Shown: positions 4,401 to 61,928, counted from the stretch's first letter. The stretch: DNA of 64,000 nt from Gammaproteobacteria bacterium (GCA_016200485.1 JACQEP010000016.1:139067-203066); one strand, 5' to 3'. The notes: generated by a model not told the origin, from the letters alone. Numbers and translations: made by a program.

Positions 4401-4487
4401 GATGCGCCCCTTTGCTGTTCATTGTCGTTTATAACAACAATTGCTGTCAATGACGACATTACGCCACAACAGCCAGCGATATATTGA

Positions 4488-4675: not shown

Positions 4676-4701
4676 CCCCTCTCCCGCGAGCGGGAGAGGG
4701 G
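4676..4701. repeat. perfect 12-bp-stem palindrome CCCTCTCCCGC-GA-GCGGGAGAGGG downstream of brnA
   Basis: Read directly from the sequence, ~40 bp past the brnA stop. No T-tract, so hairpin or REP-like rather than a canonical terminator. Confidence 0.5.
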
Positions 4702-4739
4702 CGATTTCAAACATATTCATGCCGTATCAATAGTGAACC

Positions 4740-5283: not shown

Positions 5284-5584
5284 GAGACAAACCTAGCAGA
5301 ATCCAAGCTATTTGTCCATATTATTATATGGCTTTTTATATGGCTTGCTCCATGCCAGCTTGGCAACCTCTAACGGCACCCATCAGCCGCGCCGCTTTTT
5401 GGCGTCGGCTGGATAGGTTTAGCCCAAGGCGACGGGTACTCAAGCCTGAACACCAGTTGACGACGATGCCGAAAACGTGCACCAGAGTCAGGCAAAATGT
5501 ATGCCAATGGCGCCGCTTCAGTTTGGGGCTAACGCCAAGCTAAGCCGACGCCCGGAGCAGCGCGGAGGGCGGTTGAGCGCAGGG

Positions 5585-6190: not shown

Positions 6191-6223
6191 TCACGCGCTT
6201 GTCGCGTGCATTGCATTGCCATT

Positions 6224-6706
6224 TCATATGCAGCCTTGAACCTCGATTCTCTCTTCAAAGAGTAATTCCTTCACCCTTTTTATTTCAATAAATTCGTATG
6301 GCGATGTTTGCGATTGGGTGACGATGCAATTGCTCCCCGGCTTTTTGATTACAATCTTGGCTTTAATGTATTCACCAAAGTCCTCAATTTTCTCTACCGA
6401 TATTGAGTGGCCGCCAGTAGAGCGCCCGCCAAGGCTTAGCAATACCACTCTTCTCGACGAGAAATCCACTGTGTGCTCTGTAACTGGGTGAATATATAAG
6501 TACAAGCTCGAATTAAATGATGTCTGACTTGTAAACACCTCTATTTTTCTGTTTTCTGGCAAGCCACTTATTGTTTTGTCACCGGATGCTATCACCGTAA
6601 ACGTTACGATTGGCAGTGGTGTATCCGCATTTGACTCGGGGACACAGCTTACTAACAACGGCGCAAGCATTGTTACCAGAACAACCAGCAGTTTATTGAT
6701 TTTCAT
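6224..6706 (-). CDS. lipoprotein with PrcB_C-like domain
   Basis: Signal peptide plus lipobox (LLVSC). AT-rich. Start taken at MKINKLL (ATG 6706) with an AAGGT Shine-Dalgarno. The domain assignment is tentative. Confidence 0.5.
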   Translation of the reverse strand: MKINKLLVVLVTMLAPLLVSCVPESNADTPLPIVTFTVIASGDKTISGLPENRKIEVFTSQTSFNSSLYLYIHPVTEHTVDFSSRRVVLLSLGGRSTGGHSISVEKIEDFGEYIKAKIVIKKPGSNCIVTQSQTSPYEFIEIKRVKELLFEERIEVQGCI

Positions 6707-6804
6707 AAATTTACCTTGATAAGGCATAACATTGTGTTGAGCGGCGCGGCGCGCAGAGACAACAGGAAACAGTGTGCCGCTTCACCGCTCCCGACTCGAA
6801 CGCA

Positions 6805-7071
6805 TTATGTGCTTTTTGCTTTTTTTGGAAACCGCTCTGGATGCTCAATGATTTCTTGTGTGAGATCGACATCGATTTCCGGCCAATAAAAGCGTCCAGG
6901 TGATGGCTCTTTAACATTCATAATTACCTTTACCGGCTGATCCTTGAACCACGGGAATTCATCGTATGGCATGAATAATTCTTGGTCATGAGCCAACAAC
7001 CAGATTCCGTGAGTAGAGATATTGGTTACTTCAACTGCCGAAGTAGTGTTGCCATGCGCTGATATGCTCAT
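6805..7071 (-). CDS. DUF2442 family protein
   Basis: 88 aa, ISTHGIWLL...ELFMPYDEFPWFKD...KVIMNV...FYWPEIDVDLTQEII matches the DUF2442 pattern. Confidence 0.6.
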   Translation of the reverse strand: MSISAHGNTTSAVEVTNISTHGIWLLAHDQELFMPYDEFPWFKDQPVKVIMNVKEPSPGRFYWPEIDVDLTQEIIEHPERFPKKAKST

Positions 7072-7210
7072 GATAGTGTTCCTCGATAAGTGACTCGACT
7101 TCTTTCAACTGTTGCCGATTGTAACGGTAGGTTTTCGCAAGCTGTAGTTCCGGCTCAAGGATGAGGTCGAAATTACAAACTTTATACCTTAATTACAAAT
7201 TTTTTTATCA
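7031..7210 (-). pseudogene. 5'-truncated DUF4160-family gene fragment (partner of DUF2442)
   Basis: The open frame encodes ...LILEPELQLAKTYRYNRQQLKEVESLIEEHYHEHISAWQHYFGS*, which is like a DUF4160 C-terminus. The frame runs into IR-B with no start codon, and about 45 N-terminal residues are missing. Confidence 0.4.
7171..7207. repeat. right inverted repeat (IR-B) AATTACAAACTTTATACCTTAATTACAAATTTTTT
   Basis: Inverted copy of IR-A. Followed after 5 bp by CTAAACACC. Confidence 0.8.
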
Positions 7211-7277
7211 CTAAACACCAGCATGAGAGCGCCAAAAACGGGATTCAAAGGATAACAAGGCGAAAGAAGCTCAACCG

Positions 7278-7304
7278 TAGGGGTGATTTATGAATCGCCC
7301 CTAA
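7278..7304. repeat. REP-like palindrome copy (GTAGGGGTGATTTATGAATCGCCCCTAA, imperfect)
   Basis: Member of the GGGGCGATTCATGAATCGCCCC family, immediately 3' of the dioxygenase gene. Confidence 0.7.
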
Positions 7305-8339
7305 CTACTGCTCGACCGGATATCCCGCCAACACCCAATGCGGCATCCCCGAATGGCCGACACACACCAGATTGTTCAAGCCCACAATCGTCAGATTGGT
7401 AAACGCGGTCTGCGCCCGGCGCCCTGAGCGGCAATAGAGATATACCTTTTCAAATTTTCTCAATTCATCGATATGCTGCACTTCGGTGCCAAAGGGAATA
7501 TTGCGACTACCGGGCACATGGCCGATTTCATATTCTTCAGGCGTACGGCTATCCACTATCAATGTATTCGCGGGCCGCGCCTGCCATACCTTGTGTAAAT
7601 CGGCCATTGAAAATTCTTCATGTACATAACGCCGGGGGTCAAAATGAATCCCCACACCAAGATTGGCAGGTACGGCCTCATTGATTCTTTTCGGCAATTC
7701 CAGATTAAGGTTGTTCATGAGTGCGACAAATGCCTCGTGGCTCTTGCCCTGACCAATACGCGGATTCCATTTTTTTTCTTCGCCGATCGTTGAACTCATG
7801 CGGCCGTTGTAATCATGCGCCGGGTAAACAATGGTATCTTCAGGCAAGGAAAACAATTTCGAGGTAATGCTAGTGTATAAGCTCGATGGATTTCCCTGCT
7901 GAAAATCGGTGCGCCCACAACCACGAATCAATAACGCATCGCCCGTGAACACTGCGCCATCGATGAGGTAACTAACACAACCATCGGTGTGACCAGGTGT
8001 CGCCAGCGCTTTAATCACATGATCACTGATCATCAAAGTATCGCCATCATGAATCGGAACATCGATCGCTTTCACATCGGCCGCCGCACTATAGACAATC
8101 TTGGCGCCCGTCTTCTGGCGAATAATCCCGGCGGAGGTCACATGGTCGGCATGCACATGTGTTTCCAAGACATAAAGCAGTTCAACTCCCAGCTCCACAA
8201 TCAATTCCAGATCTCGATCCACCCATTCCTTCACCGGATCGATCAGGGCGCCCTGCCGTGTTTCCGGATCAATCAATAAATAGGTATAGGTGCAGGTATC
8301 CCGATCCATCAATTGACGAACTATCAGTGTCGCACCCAT
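7305..8339 (-). CDS. persulfide dioxygenase (MBL fold, ETHE1-like) fused to a rhodanese domain
   Basis: 344 aa with the HxHxDH metal motif (ETHVHADHV), a later GHTDG motif, and a C-terminal rhodanese with an active-site Cys (YLYCRSGRRA). Confidence 0.75.
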   Translation of the reverse strand: MGATLIVRQLMDRDTCTYTYLLIDPETRQGALIDPVKEWVDRDLELIVELGVELLYVLETHVHADHVTSAGIIRQKTGAKIVYSAAADVKAIDVPIHDGDTLMISDHVIKALATPGHTDGCVSYLIDGAVFTGDALLIRGCGRTDFQQGNPSSLYTSITSKLFSLPEDTIVYPAHDYNGRMSSTIGEEKKWNPRIGQGKSHEAFVALMNNLNLELPKRINEAVPANLGVGIHFDPRRYVHEEFSMADLHKVWQARPANTLIVDSRTPEEYEIGHVPGSRNIPFGTEVQHIDELRKFEKVYLYCRSGRRAQTAFTNLTIVGLNNLVCVGHSGMPHWVLAGYPVEQ

Positions 8340-8342
8340 TAC

Positions 8343-8948
8343 TCACACTCCCCAACGTGGAAGCAAATGATGCTCAACGTTCAAATGATCAAGCACCCGC
8401 GCTACGACAAAATCGACCAAATCTTCAATCTTTTGCGGTTGATGATAAAAGCCCGGATTCGCGGGAAGAATGGTGACACCTAGTTGCGACAGTGTAAGCA
8501 TGTTTTGTAGATGAATCGCCGACAACGGTGTTTCGCGATGTACCAGAATCAATTGCCGCCGTTCCTTGATCATGACATCGGCGGCGCGCTCCATGAGATC
8601 ACTGCTGGCGCCGCAGGCAATCGCGGACAACGTGGCGCTGGTACACGGGCACACCACCATCGCCCGTGGCGCGCCAGAACCCGAAGCGACCGGTGCCGAC
8701 CATTGATCCTTGCCGTAGACAAACAACTGATTTGGTTTTGCCTTGAAATAGGCACTCAGCTGTTGTTGTGCTTCTTTGGGGGTGCTCGACAGCTTGAGCT
8801 CTGTCTCCATGGCGATAACGACCTGTGCTGCCTGACTAATCATCAGATGCACACTCTCCCCCGCCTGCAACAAACACTCCAGCAATCGCAAACCATAGGC
8901 GGCACCCGAAGCACCGGTCATGGCCAATGCGATATCGCGACGGCTCAT
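8343..8948 (-). CDS. ubiX: flavin prenyltransferase UbiX
   Basis: 201 aa, [21 protein letters not shown]... resembles the UbiX/Pad1 family. Confidence 0.8.
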
Positions 8949-10321
8949 CGTTGTTCCAACGCCTTGAGCAGTTTGTCGTGGATGCCGCCGAAGCCGCCAT
9001 TGCTCATCACCAGGATGTGATCGCCGCTATGCACACGCGCCACTACATGTTTAACAATATCGGCGACGTTATTAAACACGCGCGCCCCTGGACCAATCGC
9101 CTGCGCCACTTCTTGCAACGACCAACCCAGATCACCCGATTCCATGATCACTACCTCATCCGCCGCCGCCAGTGATGGCGCCAGCGTGTGCCGATGCACG
9201 CCCAGCTTCATGGTATTGGAACGCGGCTCCAGCACGGCGATAATCCGCTGTTTGCCAACACGCTGGCGCAACCCGTCCAGTGTCAGCGTAATCGCCGTCG
9301 GATGATGGGCGAAATCATCGTATACGGTAACGCCTTTTACTGTGCCGAGCACCTCAAGCCTGCGCTTGACGCTGGCAAATTCATTCAACGCCGCGACTGC
9401 TTCACTCGCAATCACCCCCGCGTGCCGCGCGGCAGCAATCGCCGCCAGCGCATTGTGCACGTTGTGTTGTCCGAGCAGATTCCAGTTCACATCACCCACA
9501 TGCTCGTCACCCCAATACACACTAAAGCGACTACCATCGGCGGAGACATCACGCGCATTCCACAACCTTGTTTCGGGCTGCTCGACACCCGCTGTGTCAA
9601 AATATTCCACCGGTGTCCAGCAACCTTGGTTAATGACATCCGCAATATTGGGATCATCCACCGGCGCGATCACCAAACCATTGCCGGGGATCGTGCGCAC
9701 CAGATGATGAAACTGGCGCTTGATAGCATCGAGATCAGGAAAAATGTCGGCGTGGTCGTATTCGAGATTGTTGAGAATCACCGTCCGGGGCCGGTAATGC
9801 ACAAACTTGGAACGCTTGTCGAAAAACGCGGTGTCATATTCATCGGCTTCGACGACAAAAAAGGGGGCATCGCCTAGCCGTGCAGAAACCGAAAAATTAC
9901 CTGGGATGCCGCCGATCAAAAAACCCGGCTTGAGCTTGGCGTATTCGAGTATCCACGCCAGCATACTGCTGGTCGTCGTCTTGCCGTGCGTGCCGGCAAC
10001 GCCCAGCACCCAGCGACCGCGCAACACATAATCGGACAAAAACTGCGGCCCGGACATATACGGCAGATTGCGTTCGAGCACATATTCCACCGCCGGATTG
10101 CCGCGCGACATGGCGTTGCCAATTACCACCAGATCCGGCTCGGGGTTTAGATTTTTAGGGTCGTAGCCTTCAAATAATCGAATACCCTGCGCCTCAAGCT
10201 GCGTGCTCATCGGCGGATAGACATTGGCATCCGAGCCACTGATTTCATGGCCCATCTGCCGGGCCAACACCGCAATGCCGCCCATGAATGTACCGCAAAT
10301 GCCCAGTATATGAACTTTCAT
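8945..10321 (-). CDS. mpl: UDP-N-acetylmuramate:L-alanyl-gamma-D-glutamyl-meso-DAP ligase
   Basis: 458 aa, [15 protein letters not shown]...[15 protein letters not shown]...GTHGKTTT resembles Mpl. 4-bp overlap with ubiX. Confidence 0.85.
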
Positions 10322-10322
10322 A

Positions 10323-10838
10323 TCAACCTGCCCCTGCCGCCTTGAATAAAGAGCTAATGATACTGATTGAAACGTATAAATAGACCAAGGCGATTAAAAT
10401 TCCGATAAAAAACTTGGTCGACAACGCATGCCGCAACACATGTCCGACCACCGCCAGATTCCAGGTCAGCAAACCCATCATCAACATGGTCGACACCATC
10501 GGCATCACCTCCGGCTGTTGCACTTGCCACCACAACACGGGCGCCGCAAACACAGCAAGGATGGCGCCGCTCCCGGCCAATGCCGTCAGCGTCTGCGTAA
10601 AACGGGCACCGAGGTCGCGCACCCACAGCAACAAAAACGTCAGCCCCGACACAATCAACACATCGACTATCCCTGACGCTAGCGCCAGCGCCGGCGTCAG
10701 ACTCATCAAACCCACAACGATGCTGCATAAACCATAAATAATCAGGCTCAATGCCAGCAACACGTTCGAGGACGGCAAATCCTGCGGCGCGAGCCGAAAC
10801 AGGCAAATCTTCCAGAAGGCATTGAGAATAGCGTACAT
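10323..10838 (-). CDS. inner-membrane protein, ~5 TM helices (Yip1-like?), hypothetical
   Basis: 171 aa and very hydrophobic. No recognisable motif. Confidence 0.45.
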   Translation of the reverse strand: MYAILNAFWKICLFRLAPQDLPSSNVLLALSLIIYGLCSIVVGLMSLTPALALASGIVDVLIVSGLTFLLLWVRDLGARFTQTLTALAGSGAILAVFAAPVLWWQVQQPEVMPMVSTMLMMGLLTWNLAVVGHVLRHALSTKFFIGILIALVYLYVSISIISSLFKAAGAG

Positions 10839-10943
10839 GGCAACGCGAGATGACCCGACGATAGACTAGGCTATCATTAGAACATCCCGCCTGACAAAGC
10901 TCAATGGAACTAGCCGTGACAGCCCGCATCGTGTTTAATACCT

Positions 10944-12107
10944 TTGATGCCCAAGCATTTAGCCTCCAAATATCGTTTCCCCTGGCGGGAAGGCAATCAG
11001 TTTCGACTCCTGGTCGACGGTGATCGCTTTTATCCGGCAATGCTGGAGGCTATCACGATCGCAAAACATTCCATTATCCTGGAGATGTATCTGGTACGCC
11101 CCGGCAGCGTCTTTGACCGTTTCACGACGGCTTTGCAGCTGGCCGCCAAACGCGGCGTGCAGGTATTTATTTTGTTTGACGATTACGGCTCACGCGAACT
11201 GCGCCAGATCGACCGCCAACAACTGGCGCATCCCAATATTCGTCTTACCTGGTATAACCCGTTTCACTATGGCCAACTGCGCCGCGCTTTGCTGCGTGAT
11301 CACCGCAAGCTACTAGTCGTCGACAATCGCATTGCTTATGTCGGCGGCGCCGGGTTGACCGATGATTTTATCCAACCCCATCACCGCTGGCATGACATGA
11401 TGATTGAAATCCAGGGGCCCTGCGTCTCGGACTGGCAATCACTGTTCCGCGACGCGTGGCCAGCGGCATCGCCACCGGAATCGGCAGCGCCAATTCCGGT
11501 GGCGATGCCGATTGATGCTGCTATTGGTGCGCAACTGGGCCGTGTCACTTTATCGCAACTTTCCAATCGTCAGGAAATACAGCGCTCATTAGTGCACCGG
11601 ATACGGAGCGCCGAACATTGGGTCTGGCTTAGCACCGCCTATTTCGTTCCTTCCTGGAAATTGCGGCGGGCACTGAGTTCGGCCGCCAAACGTGGTATCG
11701 ATGTGCGCCTGGTGCTGCCCGGCCCGCACACAGATCATCCTGCCATTCGTCATGCCGGAAGGCGTTTTTATTATGGACTGCTACGGCGCGGCGTCCGGAT
11801 TTATGAATATCTTCCGCGGTTTAATCACACCAAACTTTATCTCTGCGATCACTGGATCTCGATCGGTTCCAGCAACGTCGATCGCTGGAATTTATTCTGG
11901 AATCTTGAAGCCAATCAGGAAGTAGATGATCAAACACTCAGCGAAGAGGCGCGGAATCACTTCAACGAAGACTTTACGCATTGCCTGGAAATCACGCTTG
12001 AACACTGGCAGCGCCGCGCCTGGCATCGCCGGTTACTGGAACAATTCTGGGGCTGGGTAGATGCGCGCTTGAATCAATTAAGCCAGCGCTGGCGGCGTAA
12101 ATCTTGA
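10944..12107 (+). CDS. phospholipase D-family protein (cardiolipin synthase ClsB-like), two HKD motifs
   Basis: 387 aa, HRKLLVVDNRIAYVGG and HTKLYLCDHWISIGSSNVD. Confidence 0.7.
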   Translation: MMPKHLASKYRFPWREGNQFRLLVDGDRFYPAMLEAITIAKHSIILEMYLVRPGSVFDRFTTALQLAAKRGVQVFILFDDYGSRELRQIDRQQLAHPNIRLTWYNPFHYGQLRRALLRDHRKLLVVDNRIAYVGGAGLTDDFIQPHHRWHDMMIEIQGPCVSDWQSLFRDAWPAASPPESAAPIPVAMPIDAAIGAQLGRVTLSQLSNRQEIQRSLVHRIRSAEHWVWLSTAYFVPSWKLRRALSSAAKRGIDVRLVLPGPHTDHPAIRHAGRRFYYGLLRRGVRIYEYLPRFNHTKLYLCDHWISIGSSNVDRWNLFWNLEANQEVDDQTLSEEARNHFNEDFTHCLEITLEHWQRRAWHRRLLEQFWGWVDARLNQLSQRWRRKS

Positions 12108-28892: not shown

Positions 28893-29022
28893 GACGCGGA
28901 GGCGCGGAGACGCAAAGGGAGCTAAAATTGTTAATGGGATATTCATGCTTATCAACCACTAACAAACTGACAAGGACAAACGCCCCAGTTCCAGCTCCTC
29001 TCTGCGTCTCCGCGCCTCCGCG
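28893..29022. repeat. long-stem hairpin element E1 (21-bp stem ACGCGGAGGCGCGGAGACGCA, ~88-nt loop)
   Basis: The arms at 28893-28913 and 29002-29022 are reverse complements. The stem is made of CGCRGAGR octamers. Sits between gltD and hemE. Confidence 0.75.
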
Positions 29023-29030
29023 TTGGGTTT

Positions 29031-47665: not shown

Positions 47666-47683
47666 AAAAACGAGCGAAACCCT

Positions 47684-47762
47684 AACGCGAAGGCGCAAAG
47701 ATAACGCTCAATGAGTGCGTTCGTATTTTTAGCTTTTCTCCGCACCTTTGCGCCTTCGCGTT
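47684..47762. repeat. long-stem hairpin element E2 (perfect 17-bp stem AACGCGAAGGCGCAAAG, 45-nt loop)
   Basis: The arms are at 47684-47700 and 47746-47762. Sits between convergent mrcA and gltA, so probably a bidirectional terminator. Confidence 0.75.
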
Positions 47763-47769
47763 GGATTTT

Positions 47770-49092
47770 CTAACTTCGCTTGTTAATATCCACATAATCC
47801 CGCTCGGCCGCACCAACATACAACTGTCGTGGCCGTGCGATCCGCTGGTTGGGATCGGAGATCATTTCCATCCACTGTGCCACCCAGCCTACGGTGCGCG
47901 CAATCGCAAACATCACCGTAAACATATTCACCGGGATACCCAACGCCTTATAAATGATGCCGGAGTAAAAATCGACATTCGGATACAAGGAACGCTCGCG
48001 GAAATAATCGTCCTTGAGCGCAACCTCTTCCAGCCGCATCGCCAGCTCGAATAACGGGTCATTGGCATCGCCCAATTTCTCCAGCACCTCATGGCACATC
48101 TGGCGAATGATCTTGGCGCGCGGATCATAGTTCTTGTAGACGCGATGGCCAAAGCCCATCAATCGAAAACTGTCATTCTTGTCTTTGGCGCGATCAAGAA
48201 ATTTCTGAATGTGTTTCACATCGCCGATTTCTTCCAGCATCCCCAACACTGCCTCATTGGCACCGCCATGGGCGGGCCCCCACAATGCAGCGATACCGGA
48301 TGCCACGCAGGCAAATGGATTGGCCGCCGAACTACCGGCCAGACGAATCGTGGAAGTACTGGCATTTTGTTCATGATCCGCATGCAGAATAAAAATCAAA
48401 TCCAGTGCCCGCTCGGCGATGGGATTGACATAATATTCCTCGCACGGCACTGAAAACATCATATGCAGCAAATTGCCGGTGTAGCTCAGGCTGTTGCGCG
48501 GATAGACAAACGGCTCACCGATGGAATGTTTATAACTCGCCGCCGCAATTGTCGGCATCTTGGCCATTAACCGATGCGCGGCGATTTCACGGTGCCTGGC
48601 ATTTCGAATATCGGTGGAATCATGATAGAACGCCGACAGCGAACCGACGACACCGACCATAATCGCCATTGGATGTGCGTTGTATTGAAAACCTTGATAA
48701 AAACTCCTCAGGCTTTCACGAATCATCGTATGATGAATAATTCCGGTACTGAATGTTGTTAACTGCTCACGGCTCGGCAACTCGCCATACACCAGCAAAT
48801 AGGCCACTTCGAGAAAGGTACTCTTTTCCGCCAGCTGCTCGATGGGATAGCCGCGATACAGCAACTCCCCCTTGTCGCCATCGATATACGTGATCGCGCT
48901 GCGGCAACTGGCGGTCGACATGAATCCGGGGTCGTATGTGACATAACCGAGTTCTTTGTAGAAAGACATGATATCCACCGCGCCTGGACCATGTGTGCCG
49001 CGATGCACAGGCAACTCGATCTGCTTACCTGTGGCGTTATCAATAACAGTTACTGTGTCTTTTTTCGATTCGCTATCTTTGGCCTTTGCCAT
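47770..49092 (-). CDS. gltA: citrate synthase (type II)
   Basis: 440 aa. Motifs GFGHRVYK and [17 protein letters not shown]. Confidence 0.9.
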
Positions 49093-52156: not shown

Positions 52157-52280
52157 ACCACAGAGGCGCAGAGTACACAGAGAATAAACATTCTGTATAG
52201 CGCTGATGTGCGCAGGCAGCGGGTGAGCGCAGCGCTAAAATGACATTATGACTTCCTCTGTGCTCTCTGCGCCTCTGTGG
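52157..52280. repeat. long-stem hairpin element E4 (26-bp stem ACCACAGAGGCGCAGAGTACACAGAG, 24/26 paired, ~72-nt loop)
   Basis: The arms are at 52157-52182 and 52255-52280. Sits between mdh and the malic enzyme gene. Confidence 0.75.
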
Positions 52281-52296
52281 TAAGGTTTTTAGGATT

Positions 52297-53685: not shown

Positions 53686-54885
53686 TTAATGCGATACCGC
53701 CTCCGCCGCCGGAATCCGCCACCACAAGACCAGTGACGTCACCAACAACGCCAGCTGCCCCAACGCCATATGGCTCGGCGCGAGGCTCAACAATGGCACC
53801 GCCAAGCTCGCAATCAGCGCATTGACCATCATTTGCACAAAACCCTGCAACGCCGACGCTGTACCACGATGATGGGGAAAACAGTCCAGCGACAACACCG
53901 TCATCGCCGGCATCGCCAATCCGATGCCACAGGCAAACAACACCAGCGGCGCCACCGAGGTGACGACCATCGGCAACAGCCACAGCGATTGCGCCACATT
54001 CAATACCGTACCCACCGTCATCAACGTCAACGCCAGTTTCACCGTCCGCTCCGGCGGCCAGCGATGAGCCAGCCGCGCGCTCAACCCAGAACCGGAGATC
54101 ATGCCCATCACCATCGGCACGAACATCAGACCAAAATCGCCGCTTTGCAGATGCAAAAAATCAAAGATCAGCGTCGGCGCCCCAGCAATATAAAGAAACA
54201 TACCGCCGAAATAGCCGCTCACAATAAACACCAGTGACAAAAAACGGCGATGCACCAACGCGCGGCCGTAAACACGGGCCACATTCACTGGATGAAAGGA
54301 TTGGCGCAAGGCTGGGGCCAGCGTCTCCGGAATTCGCAACAACACTAGCAAAAACACCAGGCCGCTATAAATCGCTAGGAAATAAAACACACTGTGCCAG
54401 CCAAAGGCATCGTGCAACCAACCGCCAATCACCGGCGCTATCGCTGGCGCCAGCGCAAACAGCATCATCACCTGCGACATCGCCCGCTGCGCATCCTGCG
54501 GATTGTAAACATCGCGGATCATCGCCCGCCCCGCCACCAAGCCACCCCCGGCCGCCACCCCCTGCAACAGGCGATAGAACAAAAAGCTGCCATAGTCCGC
54601 CGCCATGGCGCAGCCGACCGACGCTGCAATATAAAACAACAACGACCCCAGAATCACTCGCCGCCGTCCCAATCGGTCCGCCAACGGCCCCAACACCAGC
54701 GTCGAAATCGCAAACGCCGCCAGATAAAACGCCAGACTCTGCGACAACAACGCCCGGCTCACCCCAAACTCCGCCTCAATCTCGGGGAAGGAAGGCAAAT
54801 AGGTATCGATGGTAAACGGTCCGATCATCGACGTCACCGCGACGATCAGCGTCAGTCCTTTGGGTGGGGGGATTTTATGGGGCAC
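53686..54885 (-). CDS. MFS transporter (Bcr/CflA-like drug efflux family)
   Basis: 399 aa, 12 predicted TM helices, MFS motif GPLADRLGRRRV. Confidence 0.7.
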   Translation of the reverse strand: MPHKIPPPKGLTLIVAVTSMIGPFTIDTYLPSFPEIEAEFGVSRALLSQSLAFYLAAFAISTLVLGPLADRLGRRRVILGSLLFYIAASVGCAMAADYGSFLFYRLLQGVAAGGGLVAGRAMIRDVYNPQDAQRAMSQVMMLFALAPAIAPVIGGWLHDAFGWHSVFYFLAIYSGLVFLLVLLRIPETLAPALRQSFHPVNVARVYGRALVHRRFLSLVFIVSGYFGGMFLYIAGAPTLIFDFLHLQSGDFGLMFVPMVMGMISGSGLSARLAHRWPPERTVKLALTLMTVGTVLNVAQSLWLLPMVVTSVAPLVLFACGIGLAMPAMTVLSLDCFPHHRGTASALQGFVQMMVNALIASLAVPLLSLAPSHMALGQLALLVTSLVLWWRIPAAEAVSH

Positions 54886-54951
54886 TTAGTTTCGCTTATT
54901 AAAAAACGCCCTCCCTCTGAGGGAGAAAGGACTCATTTTTTCAACAAGTGG

Positions 54952-55263
54952 CTAATGATGAGGCGCATGGGCCGCATCGGGTTTCACTTCGATTTTCAAC
55001 CCAAGACCGTGCATCAGCTTAACGAAACTGGAGAGCTTGGGATTGCCTTTGCTTGAGAGCATTTTATACATGCTCTCACGGCCAAGAGAGGTTCGCTCTG
55101 CCAAGCCGCTAATCCCATCTTCTTGCGCCTCCGCAATATTACGCAGCGCCATCAGAACGACGGCGGGATCGTCACTTTCCAGCGCCTCGTTTAGATATTC
55201 ACAGGCAACATCCAGGTCTTTCAACATCTCATTATGTGTTTGCCGAACGTTTCGGGTCGCCAT
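54952..55263 (-). CDS. HTH-type antitoxin (addiction-module antidote, HigA/TIGR02684-like)
   Basis: Start placed at the internal Met (ATG 55263), which has a GAGGTG Shine-Dalgarno. Sits 10 bp after the toxin stop. Confidence 0.6.
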   Translation of the reverse strand: MATRNVRQTHNEMLKDLDVACEYLNEALESDDPAVVLMALRNIAEAQEDGISGLAERTSLGRESMYKMLSSKGNPKLSSFVKLMHGLGLKIEVKPDAAHAPHH

Positions 55264-55273
55264 CGTTTTCACC

Positions 55274-55603
55274 TCACTTGTTACTTTTGTGCGCTGACCA
55301 ATACGTAAGCGCACGTTTAATATCCTTCTTTTGGCTGGACTTATCGCCACCACACAACAGCAAATAGATATTCACACCATCTTTCGCATAGTAGACGCGA
55401 TAACCGGGGCCGTAATGAATGCGCAATTCGCTCACACCTTCCCCCACTGGCTTGGAGTCGCCAAACAGTCCCAGCTCCATCCGGTCCACTTGCATGATGA
55501 CCTTCGCCTTGGCGCGTGGATCATTCAGCGCTGCCAACCAACCGCCGTAGGGCGAATGGCCCTCATCGTCCAAATATTCGTGGATGATATTTATTATCGG
55601 CAT
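55274..55603 (-). CDS. RelE/ParE-superfamily toxin (addiction-module killer protein, TIGR02683-like)
   Basis: 109 aa. The pattern VSELRIHYGPGYRVYY...IYLLLCGGDKSSQKKDIKRA is typical of this killer family. The toxin gene precedes the antitoxin gene. Confidence 0.65.
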   Translation of the reverse strand: MPIINIIHEYLDDEGHSPYGGWLAALNDPRAKAKVIMQVDRMELGLFGDSKPVGEGVSELRIHYGPGYRVYYAKDGVNIYLLLCGGDKSSQKKDIKRALTYWSAHKSNK

Positions 55604-55610
55604 ATCACAT

Positions 55611-55628
55611 TGTATCCTTTAGGATACA
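55611..55628. promoter_or_regulatory. 18-bp palindrome TGTATCCTTTAGGATACA immediately upstream of the toxin start, putative TA operator
   Basis: Near-perfect inverted repeat that ends 8 bp before the start codon at 55603. Confidence 0.45.
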
Positions 55629-55983
55629 TGAAGTGCAAACCCGCGCTTGACTGCAATAATGCTTACAAAGCATATACATGTAACGATTACCCGCCTCGGC
55701 GAAGGGATAGGGATGATATGTAGAGTAATGAAGTTTGTGTGGAATGTCAGTCGCCATATTTTTCAGAGACTTACCCTGCCACGCAATATTAGCGCGGGCT
55801 AATTTGTCAAAAAGAAGAAATGCAAACATAATCGATTTGCAAAACAAAACAGTGGAGATGGTGCGTGAAATACGCCGTCGGGTGTTCGTTATCGTTGCTA
55901 CAAGATAAGGTGCGAGCAGAACCGCCTAGGTTACGAAATTTAAAGGGTTTTGACCCTGAGGTCTGGTGAGCGACCGACCATAA

Positions 55984-56408
55984 CGGCGGAAGACGCTGCG
56001 CTTTCCGCCCTACGCGCTTCGACATCCAGACGCCAAACGAACCCGGCATCTATCCCTTCCAGTGGCGCATGCAGCAAAAACAGATGGGATTATTCGGTGC
56101 AACGAGTCCGTTGTTGAAGATTGAGGTGAAGAGGGGCGGGAAGTAACTGTACGGGTGATGATGGAGTAGGGTGCAATAAGGCGGTAGCCGCGTTGCATCG
56201 GAGGGTGGTTCATGCGGCGCAAACGCGTAAGGCGTAACGGTAGGGCGGAAAAGCGTAGCGCCTTCCGCCGCATGAAGTTGCATAAATGAATCCCATCATG
56301 CCAAATGATTATTGGAACTGTCGAGCCCAAGAAAAACCTCGCACCTTCGCCTCAAATGGGCCTGAAGAGAACATACGGCGGAAGGCGCTACGCTTTTCCG
56401 CCCTACCT
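55984..56408. repeat. cluster of three copies of a ~33-bp hairpin repeat CGGCGGAAGGCGCTACGCTTTTCCGCCCTAC
   Basis: Copies at 55984-56013 (+), 56240-56272 (inverted) and 56375-56408 (+). The last two are near-identical. The cluster sits inside a 1.5-kb stretch that lacks convincing ORFs. Confidence 0.75.
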
Positions 56409-57115
56409 AAAGAGACTACATCTGCCTTACAAGCAGGGATCCGTCGCCGGTTCTGACGCTGAGCCAAATGTTTGTGTGATCGAATTACCTTGAATGATTT
56501 GAACAATCTGTGACAAACCAAAGGTAATACTGAAAAACTGGCAAAACGAGTTGGGATCGGTCGTCGGCGCACCCTACATAGTAAGCGTAGCCTGGGTTGA
56601 GCGTTTTTTGCGAAACCCGGGTTATTGATGGCTACAACTGTACACCCTGAGTTTCACTTCGTGAAGCCCAGGGTGCACAAGCCAAACATCCTGCATCTTG
56701 ATGTCCTAAGTAGGTATTTACTCAGCTTATGAGTGGTGTCGAAATCGTGATGCTGCGTGTTTGGCGCGGCGTTGGCCATTATGAAAACATGGGCATCGTT
56801 GGTGGCAGTATTTGCTAGTTGAGAGCGATGACTTGAATGTAACCCTAAGTTGTCCATTTTCATTGCCAGTGAAATATTGCTGATAGCAATTTTGGTGATC
56901 GCGTCTAATATGATGTCATGTTCCTTGGTATGTAGAAGCGAAAGGTCAGCGTTTGCATTTGTTTGTCTTGTTGATAATTGCCAAGGTAATGGGGGGTCAT
57001 GCCGTGGCATCAGCGGGCTATTAACGGGGAGTAGTCACTTTATTTGGTTTGTCCGGCATGAGTAAGAAACGAAGGGAATTTGGACGGACGGTTAGAATAA
57101 TCAAGGAGAAATAAC

Positions 57116-57823
57116 ATGTTCGGTTTTCAAGAAAATTATCGCATGTTCTTTAGATTAATCGGAGTTTTGCTGGCGCTTTCTGCCTATGCGGGGGTTGGTG
57201 AGGCGAGCCCGGTGTGGGAACTGGTGCCGGCGAAAGGCAAAGTTGTGTTCTGGTGGACTGAGGAAAGTGCTGCAATTACGCTTCCAGAAGAAAGGCAAAA
57301 TAATACTAATGAGGCGAAGTGGGAAAAATTTGAAAATCCTCCAGCCAACGCAACGGATTGGCGACAGTGGACGGAAGATAAAGACGGCAAGCGCTCCGAC
57401 GTGATCGGAGGGAATATCAAGAAAACCAATCCATGGAATTGGGAGCCACTTGACACTCTGCCTGCTGTGGACTGGCGGATTCCAGACCTCTTTGCGGTAG
57501 AACCGAACTTGCAGACGCTCTATACGGCAGTAAATCTTGATTTGTATTTGGCTAACAATCCATGGCCATTATTGTCGATTGGCGACCTATTATCGATCGC
57601 TGACGGCAAAATATCCGGTCTGCAAGGTATTTATTTGAGTTCGACTGAATTTACGTTTGATCCAAACTCTGAAAACGGGTTTGTGGGAACCGCGTTTAAT
57701 GGCTTGGCGCGAGCTGGTGCTTTTCACAGCAGCGTGCCGGAACCGACGGCAATCTCGTTGCTTGGATTAGGGCTGGCATGCTTGCCTGTGTTCAAGAGAG
57801 TTCGCAGCGCCAAGACGGGCTGA
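57116..57823 (+). CDS. PEP-CTERM sorting-domain secreted protein
   Basis: 235 aa with a signal peptide. The C-terminus VPEPTAISLLGLGLACLPVFKRVRSAKTG is a PEP motif, TM and basic tail. Shine-Dalgarno AAGGAG. Confidence 0.7.
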   Translation: MFGFQENYRMFFRLIGVLLALSAYAGVGEASPVWELVPAKGKVVFWWTEESAAITLPEERQNNTNEAKWEKFENPPANATDWRQWTEDKDGKRSDVIGGNIKKTNPWNWEPLDTLPAVDWRIPDLFAVEPNLQTLYTAVNLDLYLANNPWPLLSIGDLLSIADGKISGLQGIYLSSTEFTFDPNSENGFVGTAFNGLARAGAFHSSVPEPTAISLLGLGLACLPVFKRVRSAKTG

Positions 57824-57989
57824 CATACTGCTCTGACAATTAACCCTAATTTGAAGAACACAAGTTTTTCAACGCGCCTAAGACGTAATGGCAGAGCGCC
57901 AATAGGCGAAGCCGTATTGCGCCGGATGGAAGCGCAACGCGTTTGTGAAAACTTAAACTACCGTAGCTAAGACGCTACTGGCCCAAAAG

Positions 57990-58091
57990 TTATTTTGATT
58001 CATTCTTGTTTTTCTTCGCCGCTTTTTTCTCTTTTGGAGTCATGGCGGGCTTCTTTTTACTCTCTTTATTACTTTTTTGTTCCTTGCCCAT
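57990..58091 (-). CDS. small Lys-rich basic protein, 33 aa (MGKEQKSNKESKKKPAMTPKEKKAAKKNKNESK)
   Basis: Found manually; too short for the supplied ORF track. An AGGAG Shine-Dalgarno lies 7 nt upstream of the ATG. The composition is strongly biased and not like random sequence. Confidence 0.35.
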   Translation of the reverse strand: MGKEQKSNKESKKKPAMTPKEKKAAKKNKNESK

Positions 58092-58448
58092 GGCGCTCAC
58101 TCCTAATAATGAATGGGAAATCTTCGGGTTAGTTATTACAACTCAGTTTAACGGAACCGACAATGATTTTCTGACAACACTGCACAAGATACTGAGATAG
58201 AAAGGGAAGTGATCCCTCCGTCGGTAACTACGGAGTATTTCGCCGTCTGGCATGAGATGAGCCAGCGCTGGCGAAAATAGCAGACGCCAATCCACAATAC
58301 CATGAATATAGACACTGGGTTCCACTCTTTTCGGCAACCCAGACAAGTAGGGTGCGCATAGCGCACCCTACATCTTGGACTTTATGACATATGCTTTCCG
58401 GTGGTGAGTTAAAAATAAATGGGGGCGCAACACCACAACGGGATCAGT

Positions 58449-58481
58449 TCCAACATTCCAACATTAATCTCCCATTGCACT
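58449..58481. repeat. 33-bp direct repeat, copy 1 (TCCAACATTCCAACATTAATCTCCCATTGCACT)
   Basis: 30 of 33 positions match 60036-60068. Lies just past the 3' end of the corC-like gene. Confidence 0.75.
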
Positions 58482-58553
58482 AACGCGTAAGACGTAATGG
58501 CAGGGCTCAAAAGCTCAATCCATTTTGATCGCTCGGCAATCACTCAGTTGCGT

Positions 58554-59870
58554 TTAATCTTCACTATCACTCGTGGCCGTCACATCAGTCGCGTGGGCGT
58601 GGCGGGCGAGCACCTTGTCGATGCGCTTGCCATCGAGGTCGACCACCTCCAGCCGCCAATCCTCCCAGGTGACGATGTCGCCGGTGCGCGGCAGGTGGCC
58701 GAGCAGCCACATCACCATGCCGCTGAGGGTGTGATAGCGGCCGCGCTCCTCTTCGGGGACGCTCTTCAGCGCCAGCCGATCCTTCAGTTCGGGGATCGGG
58801 ATCAGTCCGTCGAGCAGCCAGGAGCCATCCTCGCGCTGTACGGCCCAAGCGTCTTCGAGATGGTGCGATTTGAATTCGCCGGTGACTGCTTCCAGCACAT
58901 CGTGGAGCGTGACCATGCCCTGCACTTCGCCGTACTCGTCGATGACAAAGACCAGATGGGTGCTGGAGGCGCGGAACTGTTCGAGCAGTTCCATGCCGGT
59001 GAGTGACTCGGGCACATAGACGACCGACTGCAACTGGTAAGTGAGATCGGCCCTGGCCCCCTTGAGGGTCTGGTTGAAAAGCTGCTTGGCGGTGATGATA
59101 CCGACGATGTCACCCAGGCCGCCGCGGCAGACAGGGAAACGGGAGTGATCCGATTCCGCCATGCGGGCAAGGTTCTCCTCCAGCGGACGGTTGAGGTCGA
59201 GCCAGACGATGTCGGCACGCGGCACCATCAGGGTGCCGAGCTGGCGGTCATCGAGGCGGAACACATTACGCACCATCTCATGCTCACTCTTATCGATGAT
59301 GCCCGACTCCGACCCCTCTTCCAGCATGGCGTGGATTTCCTCCTCGGTCACCCCCTGCGCCCCCAGGTCGCGGGTGCCGAGCAGCCGCAGTAGCAGAGCG
59401 GTCGAGCGCATCAGCAGCCACACAAACGGGCGCGAAGCAACGGCCAGGGCATTCATGGGGCGCGCCACCAAGCAGGCGATGCGTTCGGGATCCATCTGGC
59501 CGATGCGCTTGGGCACCAGCTCGCCGACAACAATCGAGATATAGGTGATGACCACCACTACCAGCACTGTGGCGCCGATCTCGCTGGGCCGCTGTTCGAA
59601 GCCAAGCTCCTGAAGCCAGAGCGCAAACGGCTCCGCCAGGGCGGCCTCGCCGACGATGCCGTTGAGGATGCCGATGGAGGTGATGCCGATCTGGATGGTG
59701 GAGAGGAAGCGGGTCGGCTCCTCGCCCAGTTTGATGGCCATCGCGGCGGAGCAGTCACCCGCCTCCGCCAGACGGGCCAAGCGCAGGCGGCGGGCGGCGA
59801 TGAGCGCGATCTCGGACATGGCAAATGCGCCATTCAACAGGATCAGGGCAGCGAGGATCAGAATTTCCAT
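58554..59870 (-). CDS. HlyC/CorC(TlyC)-family transporter (DUF21, CBS pair and CorC_HlyC domains)
   Basis: Start chosen at MEILILAALILLNGAFAMSE (ATG 59870), which is the DUF21 N-terminus. CBS and C-terminal transporter-associated domains follow. GC is higher than the surrounding DNA. Confidence 0.75.
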   Translation of the reverse strand: MEILILAALILLNGAFAMSEIALIAARRLRLARLAEAGDCSAAMAIKLGEEPTRFLSTIQIGITSIGILNGIVGEAALAEPFALWLQELGFEQRPSEIGATVLVVVVITYISIVVGELVPKRIGQMDPERIACLVARPMNALAVASRPFVWLLMRSTALLLRLLGTRDLGAQGVTEEEIHAMLEEGSESGIIDKSEHEMVRNVFRLDDRQLGTLMVPRADIVWLDLNRPLEENLARMAESDHSRFPVCRGGLGDIVGIITAKQLFNQTLKGARADLTYQLQSVVYVPESLTGMELLEQFRASSTHLVFVIDEYGEVQGMVTLHDVLEAVTGEFKSHHLEDAWAVQREDGSWLLDGLIPIPELKDRLALKSVPEEERGRYHTLSGMVMWLLGHLPRTGDIVTWEDWRLEVVDLDGKRIDKVLARHAHATDVTATSDSED

Positions 59871-60035
59871 GGGGCAGTTTCCGGAATAGACAATGAAAAG
59901 AAGCGGCTCACGAACGGTAGTCCGAGGCACGGGGCTATATATTACACGAGGCGCTACAGCGACTGTTTTAAGTGCCATTCGGGTCGGAGCCCTTAATCCT
60001 CTCAATAAACCATCAGCACGCGGCCCGGGGCACTT

Positions 60036-60068
60036 CTAACATTCCAACATTGATCTCTCATTGCACCA
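60036..60068. repeat. 33-bp direct repeat, copy 2 (TCTAACATTCCAACATTGATCTCTCATTGCACC)
   Basis: Upstream of the corC-like gene. Confidence 0.75.
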
Positions 60069-60328
60069 GCGTGAAAGAACATTCCTAAACCTGTTCGTCA
60101 CGTGCCTATTGCTTGGCCTCTTGACTTACCTTCATCTATCGAGCGACATATATATTTAACTGACTATAATTATTCTTGCATTGGCGGATATCAGACTGGC
60201 TCAATAAAACCGTGCTAACCGCTTAATTCGAGCGGTTATCTGAATTTAATCGCAACACGCCAGTCAAATCAGAGTGTCATTTTCTTGCGGGTATCAATAA
60301 TCATCAGAAACCCGCATAGGAGGTAGGT

Positions 60329-61198
60329 ATGTTTAAAAATGTAACAACTATCATCCACCATATTTCAATATTAGCCTTGAGCGCTGCTATTGCCCTATCG
60401 CTGCCTTACACAGGTAAATTTGTTGCAGACAATTACCTAACCTATTGGTCACTTATCGAAAGCGAAAAGGTGTTCCCTATTTCCGTGGAAATTGTGTTTG
60501 CAATACTGCTGATCATTTTTCTAAACTTTTTAGGGATGAGCTGGAAAGATAGGAAATTCTCTAGAATGGCTACTGTTGATATGGGCCTTGTGCTTGTAGC
60601 ACATGCAGAAAGTCTTCGCTCGAAAAAGCGAGCGAAAAAACTTAAAGAAGAACATGGCATTGCAAAAGATGTGTTGTTAATTGGCTCAACGGGCTTCGAT
60701 ACATTCGTAACCCAGGAAGGGGATCTACATCAGATAATACAGAATTGCCGTGAAGCGAAGATAATGCTCCTGAATCCCTCTAGCGAAGGGGCAAACTTCC
60801 GCGCAAAGAGCATCCCCAATCCTGACGTAACACCTGAACGTTTCAGGAATCAGATCGCCAAGAGCATTGATTTTTTGAAAAACCTCAAATCTCTCCAGAA
60901 AAATATAAGACTGAAGTTGTACGAGGAGACGCCATTTCTTAAGCTTGTTATCCTCGGAGATTATATGTTTATGAAGTATTATCACGCTGGCCTGAGTGGA
61001 CAGGACATGCCGGAATATATATTTAAACATTCTCCAAACCAAAGCAGTCTGTTCCATCCTTTCTATCAGTTTTTTCTTTCAAAATGGCGTGATCCGAATA
61101 TCCCAGAATATGATTTTGATTCTGATGAGTTGATATATAGGGATACTTCCGGAAATGAGACTAAAAGAGAGAAATTTCTGCAATACATTACAGATTAA
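60329..61198 (+). CDS. hypothetical membrane protein (two N-terminal TM helices plus ~200-aa cytoplasmic domain), AT-rich orphan
   Basis: 289 aa, Shine-Dalgarno AGGAGG, very low GC. No recognisable motif. Confidence 0.5.
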   Translation: MFKNVTTIIHHISILALSAAIALSLPYTGKFVADNYLTYWSLIESEKVFPISVEIVFAILLIIFLNFLGMSWKDRKFSRMATVDMGLVLVAHAESLRSKKRAKKLKEEHGIAKDVLLIGSTGFDTFVTQEGDLHQIIQNCREAKIMLLNPSSEGANFRAKSIPNPDVTPERFRNQIAKSIDFLKNLKSLQKNIRLKLYEETPFLKLVILGDYMFMKYYHAGLSGQDMPEYIFKHSPNQSSLFHPFYQFFLSKWRDPNIPEYDFDSDELIYRDTSGNETKREKFLQYITD

Positions 61199-61430
61199 AG
61201 AGATTATCCGGCCGAAAGTTTGCGCCCCATATCCATATCCCGCAAACGCTGGGTATCACCGAATCTTTGCCATCGACGTAACTCCATAACGGGAACACCT
61301 GCTTCCACATTGGCACAGAGATGGAGCATAGCAAGCGCGGCTTGATGTGATGGGTTGAGAAGAATTAAAGGTGGCAAGGCCCTTAACACTTTATCGAGAA
61401 ATATTCCTTACTGTGGTAAGTTGAAGATAA

Positions 61431-61459
61431 GCGGGGACGTAACCGCCCCCGCTTTTTTT
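61431..61459 (+). terminator. Rho-independent terminator (GCGGGG...CCCCCGC hairpin followed by a T7 run)
   Basis: Read from the sequence. In the plus orientation it lies downstream of 60329-61198. Confidence 0.55.
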
Positions 61460-61928
61460 ATGCCGCTTTAACTGACTCCGCCTGCCCCTCAATAGGCGTG
61501 GCGCCCCCCGCGTTGATCTCGATGCGTTTTGGTTTCATTGCTTCGGGGATCACGCGTTTCAGATCCACGGTCAGCAATCCGTTTTGCAGTTTGGCGCCGG
61601 TGACTTCAACATGATCCGCGAGATTGAATTTGCGCTCAAAGGCACGGGTGGCGATGCCATGATGCAGATAATTGCGTTTTTGATTGTCGTCGGCCTTTCT
61701 GCCTTTAATGCTTAACATGCCGCGCTCGACCTGAATATCAATCTCGGTGTCGGCAAACCCGGCGACGGCGAGGGTGATGGCGTAACGGTTTTCATCAAGC
61801 ACTTCGATGTTGTATGGCGGGTAACCGGGGGCAGTTTGTTCGGCGTGGAAGGCGCCTTCCAATAATGAGGCCAGGCGATCAAAGCCAACGCTGTTGCGAT
61901 ACAGGGGTGTTAAATCGATTGTGGTCAT
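61458..61928 (-). CDS. small heat-shock protein (Hsp20/alpha-crystallin, IbpA-like)
   Basis: 156 aa, alpha-crystallin domain (YNIEVLDENRYAITLAVAGF...GLLTVDL). Confidence 0.85.
   Translation of the reverse strand: MTTIDLTPLYRNSVGFDRLASLLEGAFHAEQTAPGYPPYNIEVLDENRYAITLAVAGFADTEIDIQVERGMLSIKGRKADDNQKRNYLHHGIATRAFERKFNLADHVEVTGAKLQNGLLTVDLKRVIPEAMKPKRIEINAGGATPIEGQAESVKAA

Follow-up and report, generated by a model that had tools for sequence, protein, structure and literature searches.

Gene content of the region

In this work, we analyzed a stretch of 64,000 nucleotides (nt) from a Gammaproteobacteria bacterium (GCA_016200485.1, JACQEP010000016.1:139067-203066; hereafter, the window) and specifically the region that extends from a toxin–antitoxin (TA) pair to an Hsp20 gene. 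A preliminary description, made from the sequence alone, had presented this region as one AT-rich accessory island. It comprises the TA pair, a spacer poor in open reading frames (ORFs), a gene for a PEP-CTERM protein, a short lysine-rich ORF, a CorC-type transporter gene and a gene for a 289-amino acid (aa) membrane protein (Table 1). Gene calls and profile matches agree with the gene content and the mixed orientation given in that description, as do the searches for mobility functions: ARAGORN detected no tRNA or tmRNA gene in the 64 kb, and no integrase or transposase domain was found in the ORFs of the region or in the six-frame translation of 55604-57115. The Rfam search returned no real family at the gathering cut-off or at E ≤ 1, its sole match being a spurious L20-leader (E 0.19). 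Taken together, the results presented below indicate that the region is probably a layered plasticity zone, a patchwork of old and newly acquired genes and not a single island, whose recent part is a 3-kb insert carrying the CorC and 289-aa genes.

Table 1. Features of the region and its alignment with the sister-species contig L096. Coordinates are those of the window.
Feature	Coordinates	Strand	Evidence or remark
MFS (major facilitator superfamily) efflux gene, Bcr/CflA-type	53686-54885	-	TIGR00710, 265 bits; backbone, outside the island
Antitoxin, HigA-like	54952-55263	-	TIGR02684, 66.9 bits (cut-off 53.7)
Toxin, RelE/ParE-family, HigB-like	55274-55603	-	TIGR02683, 124.3 bits (cut-off 62.85)
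ORF-poor spacer with hairpins of the REP (repetitive extragenic palindrome) type	55604-57115		no Pfam, Rfam, plasmid or tblastx match
REP-a copy (GTAGGGCGGAAAGCGCAGCGTCTTCCGCC)	55984-56013	-	repeat search
REPIN-like (REP doublet forming a hairpin) pair of inverted REP-a copies	56239-56407		36-nt arms, 97% complementary, 97 nt apart; 0 expected by chance
Half REP-c copy of GTAGGGTGCGC	56567-56577		palindrome search
Two more stable hairpins (56587-56625 and 56639-56681)	56587-56681		z -4.4; adjoin the half REP-c copy
PEP-CTERM protein gene	57116-57823	+	signal peptide and C-terminal VPEP-TM-KRVRSAK read directly
Degenerate REP-like element at indel point	57875-57971		alignment of the window with L096
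33-aa lysine-rich ORF (MGKEQKSNKESKKKPAMTPKEKKAAKKNKNESK)	57990-58091	-	AGGAG 8 nt upstream of ATG; conserved in L096
REP-c palindrome GTAGGGTGCGCATAGCGCACCCTAC	58347-58371		doublet in L096
DR-A (outer direct repeat), left copy	58379-58431	+	local alignment and L096 junction
Two-gene segment (3.0 kb) absent from the sister species	58428-61403		L096 joins window 58427 directly to 61404
DR-B (inner direct repeat), left copy	58445-58492	+	runs into a degenerate REP-like motif, 58484-58511
CNNM/CBS/CorC_HlyC transporter gene	58554-59870	-	CNNM (DUF21) 1e-44, CBS pair 3e-16, CorC_HlyC 8e-21
DR-B, right copy	60031-60078	+	83% identical to 58445-58492
Gene for two-transmembrane PLD-like-fold (phospholipase D-like) protein, AT-rich	60329-61198	+	no Pfam or NCBIfam match; two hydrophobic segments
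DR-A, right copy	61388-61443	+	overlaps the Hsp20 terminator hairpin
IbpA-like Hsp20 gene	61458-61928	-	profile matches; backbone common to L096
Alignment with L096 1-757	57126-57891		88.9% nt identity (blastn)
L096 758-9850	no window counterpart		9.1 kb, GH94 gene
Alignment with L096 9851-10342	57972-58427		two blocks, 88.4% and 82.1%
Alignment with L096 10306-10698	61404-61799		88.4%, Hsp20

A two-gene segment absent from the sister species

Relatives at the locus were represented by a contig of a sister species (L096, about 88% nt identity), a genus-level Logan contig (L090) and more distant outgroups. The L096 contig, which comes from JGI sample 3300037424 and was found via the 90%-identity cluster of the PEP-CTERM protein (the same sample gave a 94%-identical malic enzyme), aligns with the DNA at both sides of the CorC and 289-aa genes and lacks the segment in between. 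At this indel, 37 nt of L096 align to both window junctions, exposing the outer pair of direct repeats, DR-A. Its two copies are imperfect (about 53 nt, about 75% identical, with a local alignment score of 37 versus a maximum of 24 in 300 shuffles) and correspond to the terminator region of the Hsp20 gene, which is present as a single copy in L096 that aligns to both copies of the window, its left side being like the left window copy and its right side like the right one. The inner pair, DR-B, brackets CorC alone, with a score of 56 versus a shuffle maximum of 27 (also in 300 shuffles). Direct repeats had been placed around CorC by the preliminary description, and they do exist, although they measure 48 nt with 83% identity and not 33 bp. 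The layout is thus DR-A (DR-B, CorC, DR-B, 289-aa gene) DR-A. Degenerate REP-like motifs adjoin the left end of the segment and also the point of a second indel, which involves a GH94 gene and is described further below.

Both genes of the segment depart from the composition of the window, in opposite directions. Among 42 long ORFs of the window, with a mean GC at third codon positions (GC3) of 0.60 (standard deviation, sd, 0.078), the CorC gene shows the highest value (0.79-0.82; z +2.4 to +2.9), whereas the 289-aa gene shows the lowest one among the credible genes (0.41; z -2.4). The codon bias of CorC is also the strongest among the window genes longer than 200 codons and its overall GC is, as had been noticed, higher (0.62-0.64), while the stretch 60000-61250 has a GC of 0.41 and is among the lowest 1% of the window. 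The GC and codon-usage scans that the preliminary description had proposed do therefore recover outliers, but these point up for CorC and down for the 289-aa gene. The base composition and codon usage of the TA and PEP-CTERM genes are just mildly off those of the host. The indel, the repeats and these compositional differences are direct observations.

The absence of CorC and the 289-aa gene from L096, their GC3 values and the unrelated contexts in which their relatives occur argue that both belong to the accessory cargo. The idea of horizontally acquired cargo hence stands for these two genes but not for the PEP-CTERM gene and the small ORF, which L096 has in common with the window. The layout is best explained, in our opinion, by two nested single-gene insertions and, because the repeat pairs are nested and the GC3 values opposite, it suggests that the genes were acquired on at least two separate occasions and that their donors had opposite GC. 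The AT-rich 289-aa gene would have entered at the Hsp20 terminator, leaving the imperfect direct repeats of about 53 nt, and the CorC gene, GC-rich and donated by a Rhodocyclales-like organism, would then have entered just upstream of it, leaving the 48-nt pair; this is the order of insertions that we presume. As for the mechanism, short pieces of DNA, about the size of a gene, would most likely have been inserted between genes where hairpins or REPs abound, either by a recombinase or illegitimately, and no mobility gene would have been kept.

Several observations weigh against this interpretation. First, the DR-A copies (about 75%) are more diverged than the flanks of the window and L096 (about 88%), which is at odds with a simple, recent duplication of the target; one copy may instead have been carried in by the inserted DNA, or else the two copies arose long ago and the segment disappeared from L096. 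In addition, a single sister-species contig spans the junction and it comes from a metagenome assembly, and the contigs of the relatives compared do not cover 54952-57125, that is, the TA pair and the spacer. Besides, codon-bias values are noisy for short genes. Lastly, scans of the window found no attC-like hairpin, integrase or transposase that would show the mechanism of insertion: with the criterion of an imperfect hairpin of 57-141 nt with complementary RYYYAAC and GTTRRRY boxes (R''/R'), a box-plus-fold scan gave no attC candidate in the whole window, and shuffled sequences fold at least as well as the flanks of either gene.

The divergence of DR-A is as expected of an old duplication, which leads to the alternative that the 3-kb segment, originally foreign, was ancestral to both species and that L096 lost it when the DR-A copies recombined. 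Such an event removes one of two direct repeats and leaves the other, as is found in L096, and the mosaic resemblance of this copy to the left and right window copies is compatible with insertion or loss. However, the GC3 of both genes remains extreme and un-ameliorated (0.82 and 0.41), even though the synonymous divergence (dS) of the backbone between the two species amounts to 0.33-0.50. We therefore regard a loss in L096 as unlikely and favor a gain of the segment in the lineage of the window.

The CorC-type transporter

The CorC-type protein has the architecture of the CNNM/CorC-HlyC transporters (PaeA, YoaE/YfjD type), with a DUF21/CNNM membrane domain, a CBS pair and a CorC_HlyC domain. 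It differs from the PaeA and CorC equivalogs in scoring below both NCBIfam cut-offs (353 versus 500 and 120 versus 379, respectively), so its substrate is not assignable. Its nearest named homologues are those of Aromatoleum, Azoarcus and Thauera (Rhodocyclales), with about 80% aa identity, and unnamed proteins from metagenome-assembled genomes (MAGs) reach 87-89%. The neighborhoods of these homologues are unrelated to the window and to one another, and the nt similarity (81-87%) ends at the ends of the ORF, with a ratio of nonsynonymous to synonymous substitution rates (dN/dS) of 0.15.

The family of the 289-aa protein and an integron-like context

The preliminary description had listed the 289-aa protein as a two-transmembrane protein of unknown function, in accordance with the two hydrophobic segments and the lack of any Pfam or NCBIfam match. 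It belongs to an orphan family: a first search returned 640 homologues at E ≤ 1e-3 and an exhaustive search about 660 clusters at 50% identity, with full-length members of approximately 240-420 aa, mostly around 290, and with no precomputed Pfam domain on the best 120 homologues. Homologues at 55-85% aa identity occur in Thermodesulfobacteriota, Nitrospirota, Syntrophorhabdus and Gammaproteobacteria. The gene is solitary and has no conserved neighbor in four distinct contexts, including that of the window. A homologue in a host with a GC of 0.57 has a GC3 of 0.60 and, therefore, the low GC is not intrinsic to the family. The protein gave no match in PADLOC, phage records or IMG/VR viral contigs, only two weak partial matches among plasmids, and nothing significant by sequence against the PDB.

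The closest homologue on a long contig (L079; GCA_964392915.1, CAYMRS010000057.1) is 85.7% identical at the nt level (dN/dS 0.21), the homology beginning 14 nt ahead of the start codon and ending right before the stop codon. In L079, positions 4409-11030 hold an integron integrase (TIGR02249, 392 bits versus 265) followed by at least four gene units set between identical hairpin repeats of 131-139 nt; in order, these units are a restriction-modification (RM) pair, the 289-aa homologue with a 55-aa ORF, an Na+/H+ exchanger and a 199-aa ORF. The homologue is therefore the second unit after the integrase, 2.2 kb away from it. Four direct, strongly folding (z -6.5) copies of the repeat separate the successive units, and the homology to the window starts about 5-25 nt from the repeat end, comprising the gene and its ribosome-binding site only. 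Both the restriction of the homology to the gene and the integron-like surroundings of the nearest homologue were observed directly. The L079 locus is built like a chromosomal array of integron cassettes, which we call only integron-like because its repeats misfit a simple test for the canonical attC R''/R' boxes. Flanking repeats as a general trait of the family were considered and discarded, since none were found in the homologous loci L082 and L085 nor around the CorC homologues.

Integron gene cassettes are a known kind of element, as are cassettes found singly outside integrons (CALIN or SALIN; IntegronFinder, PMC4889954), for which insertion at off-site attG positions has been described (Loot et al., bioRxiv 10.1101/2022.09.11.507474). 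The likeness to these elements resides in the L079 homologue, with its position among gene units after an integron integrase, the hairpin repeats in between and the RM pair as a neighbor. In contrast, the region in the window has no integron integrase, and neither of its two genes has an attC-like hairpin or R''/R' boxes beside it.

Predicted fold and possible role of the 289-aa protein

An AlphaFold2 model based on a 64-sequence alignment (predicted local distance difference test, pLDDT, 83) places the hydrophobic segments (residues ~5-27 and 47-70) in N-terminal helices that precede an alpha/beta domain. A Foldseek search of the PDB gave 28 matches at E ≤ 1e-3, all of the phospholipase D (PLD) fold, including the C-terminal domain of TrmBL2, PssA, vaccinia F13, PLD3, NucT, Zucchini, the DUF1669 of FAM83 and MITD1. 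An HKD-like strand, [F/L]203-x-K205-x4-G210-D211, was recognized. The residues conserved throughout the wide family include K205, R158, T125, G122 and P202 but no His, neither at the HKD position nor elsewhere, and the protein is therefore not a canonical PLD enzyme. The protein of the window has no match to PLDc, PLDc_2 or DUF5919, whereas 6 of 55 distant family members match DUF5919 (PF19319; best E 7.8e-5), which makes a distant relationship of the family to DUF5919 plausible. No mention of DUF5919 was found in the literature searched.

In these traits the protein resembles a non-catalytic branch of the PLD superfamily that includes the C-terminal domain of the TrmB family, FAM83 DUF1669, MITD1 and DUF5919, with which it shares the PLD fold (residues ~85-285, with a Foldseek probability of 1.0), the conserved Lys in the HKD-like strand and the DUF5919 matches of distant members; it is unlike the PLD superfamily in the lack of the HKD His and in its N-terminal anchor of two transmembrane segments. 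The 289-aa protein would most likely be a membrane-anchored, non-catalytic, ligand-binding protein of the PLD fold. The window also contains, at 10944-12107 (+), a canonical two-HKD gene of the PLD or cardiolipin-synthase-like type (PLDc_2, PLDc), which contrasts with the His-less protein.

A role in defence is suggested only by context, as the L079 homologue is a cassette beside an RM cassette and recent work has found phage-defence genes to be abundant in integron cassettes (bioRxiv 10.1101/2024.07.02.601686). This abundance makes the family an inexpensive and reasonable candidate for a defence or membrane-stress screen. It is tempting to speculate further that the family consists of unrecognised, integron-cassette-borne, single-gene membrane modules, plausibly effectors against phages or in envelope stress, which spread between phyla as units of gene size, and that the nested insertions at the Hsp20 terminator, with their repeats of about 50 nt, are scars of cassettes inserted by an integrase off-site (attG-type) or targeted to hairpins, in a genome lacking an integron at this locus, but we consider this full picture quite doubtful. 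The cultured organism Azospirillum brasilense carries on NZ_CP059450.1 (about 1.062 Mb; L097 3599-4558) an unannotated 319-aa ORF with the same transmembrane plus PLD-like architecture and 30% identity over the domain, adjoining a muramidase-like ORF. This ORF could be an experimental handle for the family.

The gene-free spacer and its palindromic repeats

The claim that 55604-57115 has no convincing ORFs was borne out: a six-frame Pfam search found no family at E ≤ 1 and no pseudogene remnant, the ORFs of the spacer are absent from a collection of 15 billion proteins, and neither blastn against plasmids nor tblastx against any of the loci compared returned a match. The protein accession numbers of the source MAG run without a gap between the toxin and the PEP-CTERM gene; its annotation thus has no gene in the spacer either. 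Sigma-70 and terminator scans scored at the level of shuffles, and no sigma-54 site above chance was found upstream of the PEP-CTERM gene.

The short repeat families that had been noted in this DNA are real and non-random. The spacer contains three copies of REP-a, GTAGGGCGGAAA(A)GCG.AGCG.CTTCCGCC, two of which form the inverted doublet listed in Table 1, and a sliding-window fold screen confined the significant structure to elements of the REP type, with REP-free gaps of about 150-430 nt between the hairpins. Palindromes led by GTAGGG, of several families, are intergenic across the window and also occur in the contigs of relatives L094, L095 and L096; therefore, they belong to the host lineage and did not come in as cargo. 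Several REP families exist in the genome, and they share with known REPs, REPINs and bacterial interspersed mosaic elements (BIMEs) the GTAG-initiated palindromes, the inverted doublets, the existence of several multi-copy families, the exclusively intergenic location and the presence at indel junctions; only from this position do we infer some part played by REPs in the rearrangements. A cognate RAYT (TnpA-REP) transposase was not seen among the window ORFs scanned, no search aimed at it having been made. Altogether, 55604-57115 appears to be a non-coding spacer colonised by the host lineage's own REP and REPIN hairpins, and the REP-free gaps must include the promoters of the TA pair and of the PEP-CTERM gene.

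A gene-free 1.5 kb is unusual in bacteria, and several segments of the spacer are much more stably folded than their shuffled versions (z -4 to -5.6), as would be expected if it were a decayed gene or a functional long non-coding RNA. However, no Pfam family in any frame and no Rfam family appears at E ≤ 1, there is no similarity to the loci or plasmids compared, each strongly structured stretch coincides with a REP-type palindrome that recurs elsewhere in the lineage, and the gaps free of REPs are short. This possibility is thus highly improbable compared with that of a spacer colonised by REPs. Other REPIN-like inverted doublets were observed at 28894-29023, 47676-47770 and 52157-52281, and the palindrome GTAGGGGCGATTCATGAATCGCCCCTAC has five intergenic copies, at 7277, 15536, 17472, 36682 and 53656.

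The PEP-CTERM gene, the 33-aa ORF and a second indel

The PEP-CTERM protein has a hydrophobic N-terminus and a C-terminus (VPEPTAISLLGLGLACLPVFKRVRSAK) composed of the PEP motif, a transmembrane helix and a basic cluster. With a textbook C-terminus and a signal peptide, it agrees with the exosortase substrate that had been proposed, the Pfam score being borderline (20.4 bits versus a cut-off of 20.7); no exosortase (EpsH/Xrt) was detected among the roughly 30 window genes scanned. The dN/dS of the gene relative to L096 is 0.15.

Between this gene and the small ORF, L096 holds 9.1 kb in the place of 80 nt of REP-like DNA of the window (57892-57971). This DNA includes, at L096 921-9515, a gene for a 2864-aa protein of the GH94 or cyclic beta-glucan-synthase-like type, with a GC3 of 0.61. 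As this GC3 is host-like, the gene may well have been lost in the lineage of the window. No direct repeats were found around this indel in L096.

The small basic ORF proposed earlier is confirmed by its conservation in the sister species: about 11 nt changes result in a single aa change, which indicates purifying selection and, therefore, a real gene. Consequently, 57824-58553, regarded before as free of ORFs, is not so. The 265 nt upstream of this ORF (58092-58357) are 88% conserved with L096; since they are conserved to the same degree and yet contain frame-breaking indels, they may constitute a leader or regulatory region.

The TA pair and the left edge

The toxin and antitoxin genes, both scoring above the curated cut-offs, lie at the border of the region, as had been described. 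They are on the same strand, separated by 10 nt, with the toxin gene upstream, and satisfy the criteria of a type II HigB/HigA-like pair. The 90%-identity clusters of toxin and antitoxin comprise 23 and 27 members, respectively, and the named members of the latter come from Gammaproteobacteria MAGs and a hydrothermal-vent metagenome. This distribution speaks for a widely travelled, promiscuous pair. A perfect 8-2-8 palindrome, TGTATCCT-TT-AGGATACA, is located at 55611-55628, just upstream of the toxin gene, and looks like a putative operator of the pair. Next to the antitoxin gene, the MFS protein is nearest to those of Ca. Tenderia and Thioalkalispiraceae MAGs.

The wider neighborhood in relatives

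In the genus-level contig L090, the malic enzyme is 93% identical (aa) to that of the window and the order citrate synthase, TPR/GT41, MDH (malate dehydrogenase) and malic enzyme is kept. Upstream of the malic enzyme gene, L090 has two unrelated genes (BcsG-like and CBS), followed by a 75% (aa) homologue of the gene that lies beyond DbpA; in the genome of the window, the gene just beyond DbpA was seen in contig L001. The zone not conserved at the genus level accordingly extends from about 53.5 to about 64.3 kb, past Hsp20, DUF599 and DbpA. The PEP-CTERM gene, the 33-aa ORF and the Hsp20-DUF599 stretch are backbone common to the sister species. More distant outgroups have other neighbors upstream of the malic enzyme gene. 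A GTDB scan with the MFS gene returned relatives at 70-81% identity without synteny, and a JGI metagenome scan with DUF599 returned relatives at no more than 58%, also without synteny. Of the MFS gene, L090 additionally retains 72 nt (3565-3636; 24 aa, 71% identity), located upstream of the malic enzyme gene at a distance of 93 nt. The adjacency of the MFS and malic enzyme genes is therefore ancestral and the L090 state derived, the remnant marking a deletion or replacement in L090.

Discussion

The region, on the chromosome of an uncultured gammaproteobacterium, is a small variable zone of a known kind and, conceptually, nothing new. It shares with chromosomal plasticity zones and genomic islets the conserved flanks (the malic enzyme cluster and the gene beyond DbpA) with a content that varies between relatives, as well as the foreign composition, the single-gene units and the TA module. 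With a classical genomic island it has in common the deviating composition of CorC and the 289-aa gene and the flanking direct repeats; unlike such an island, it has no integrase, tRNA target or common ends, and its content is layered and partly common to the sister species. TA modules are frequently found at the borders of islands, and the acquisition of one AT-rich island, from the TA pair to Hsp20, in a single horizontal event has further in its favor that GC falls at 54950 and recovers near 61450, that the gene orientation is mixed and that L090, the nearest genus-level relative, has none of these genes at the locus, but it is the least probable of the readings and very improbable indeed, as Hsp20 and 57126-58427 (PEP-CTERM gene and small ORF) are found in L096 with 88-89% nt identity, 58428-61403 alone being absent, the extreme and opposite GC3 values of CorC and the 289-aa gene point to different donors, the nested repeat pairs suggest separate events, and neither integrase, tRNA nor common ends are present. 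The pattern that the preliminary description had named beforehand as contrary to its own proposal (synteny and like composition in the relatives, with the ORF-less DNA aligning to genes of theirs) was not seen either.

The layered plasticity zone is mildly interesting for its nested, repeat-flanked, single-gene insertions at a terminator and for the orphan, His-less membrane family of the PLD fold with an integron-like link. As regards the former, it would offer a case resolved to the base pair of gene-sized DNA, from donors of opposite GC, stacked at a terminator or REP-rich intergenic site with no mobility gene left, which bears on the formation of "islets" devoid of integrases. As regards the latter, it delineates an uncharacterised and strongly conserved family, which combines two transmembrane segments with a PLD-like fold devoid of the catalytic His and has one member in an integron-like array beside an RM cassette.

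The AT-richness from which the single island had been proposed holds in part. Measured in 500-nt windows, the GC of the window averages 0.532 (sd 0.044), relative to which the DNA from 54950 to 58500, with the TA pair, the spacer and the PEP-CTERM gene, is mildly AT-rich (0.45-0.52) and 60000-61250 clearly so; in contrast, the CorC gene is GC-rich, and other parts of the window, around 6-7.5 kb and 20-27 kb, have AT-rich patches as well. The remainder of the window consists of housekeeping genes. At 4482-4524 and 7171-7213, inverted repeats of 43 nt (91% complementary) enclose a 2.6-kb AT-rich patch (GC 0.43-0.48), whose genes (5585-6727) encode an AhpC/redoxin and a PrcB_C-domain protein; this patch (4482-7213) could be another small mobile or regulated unit.

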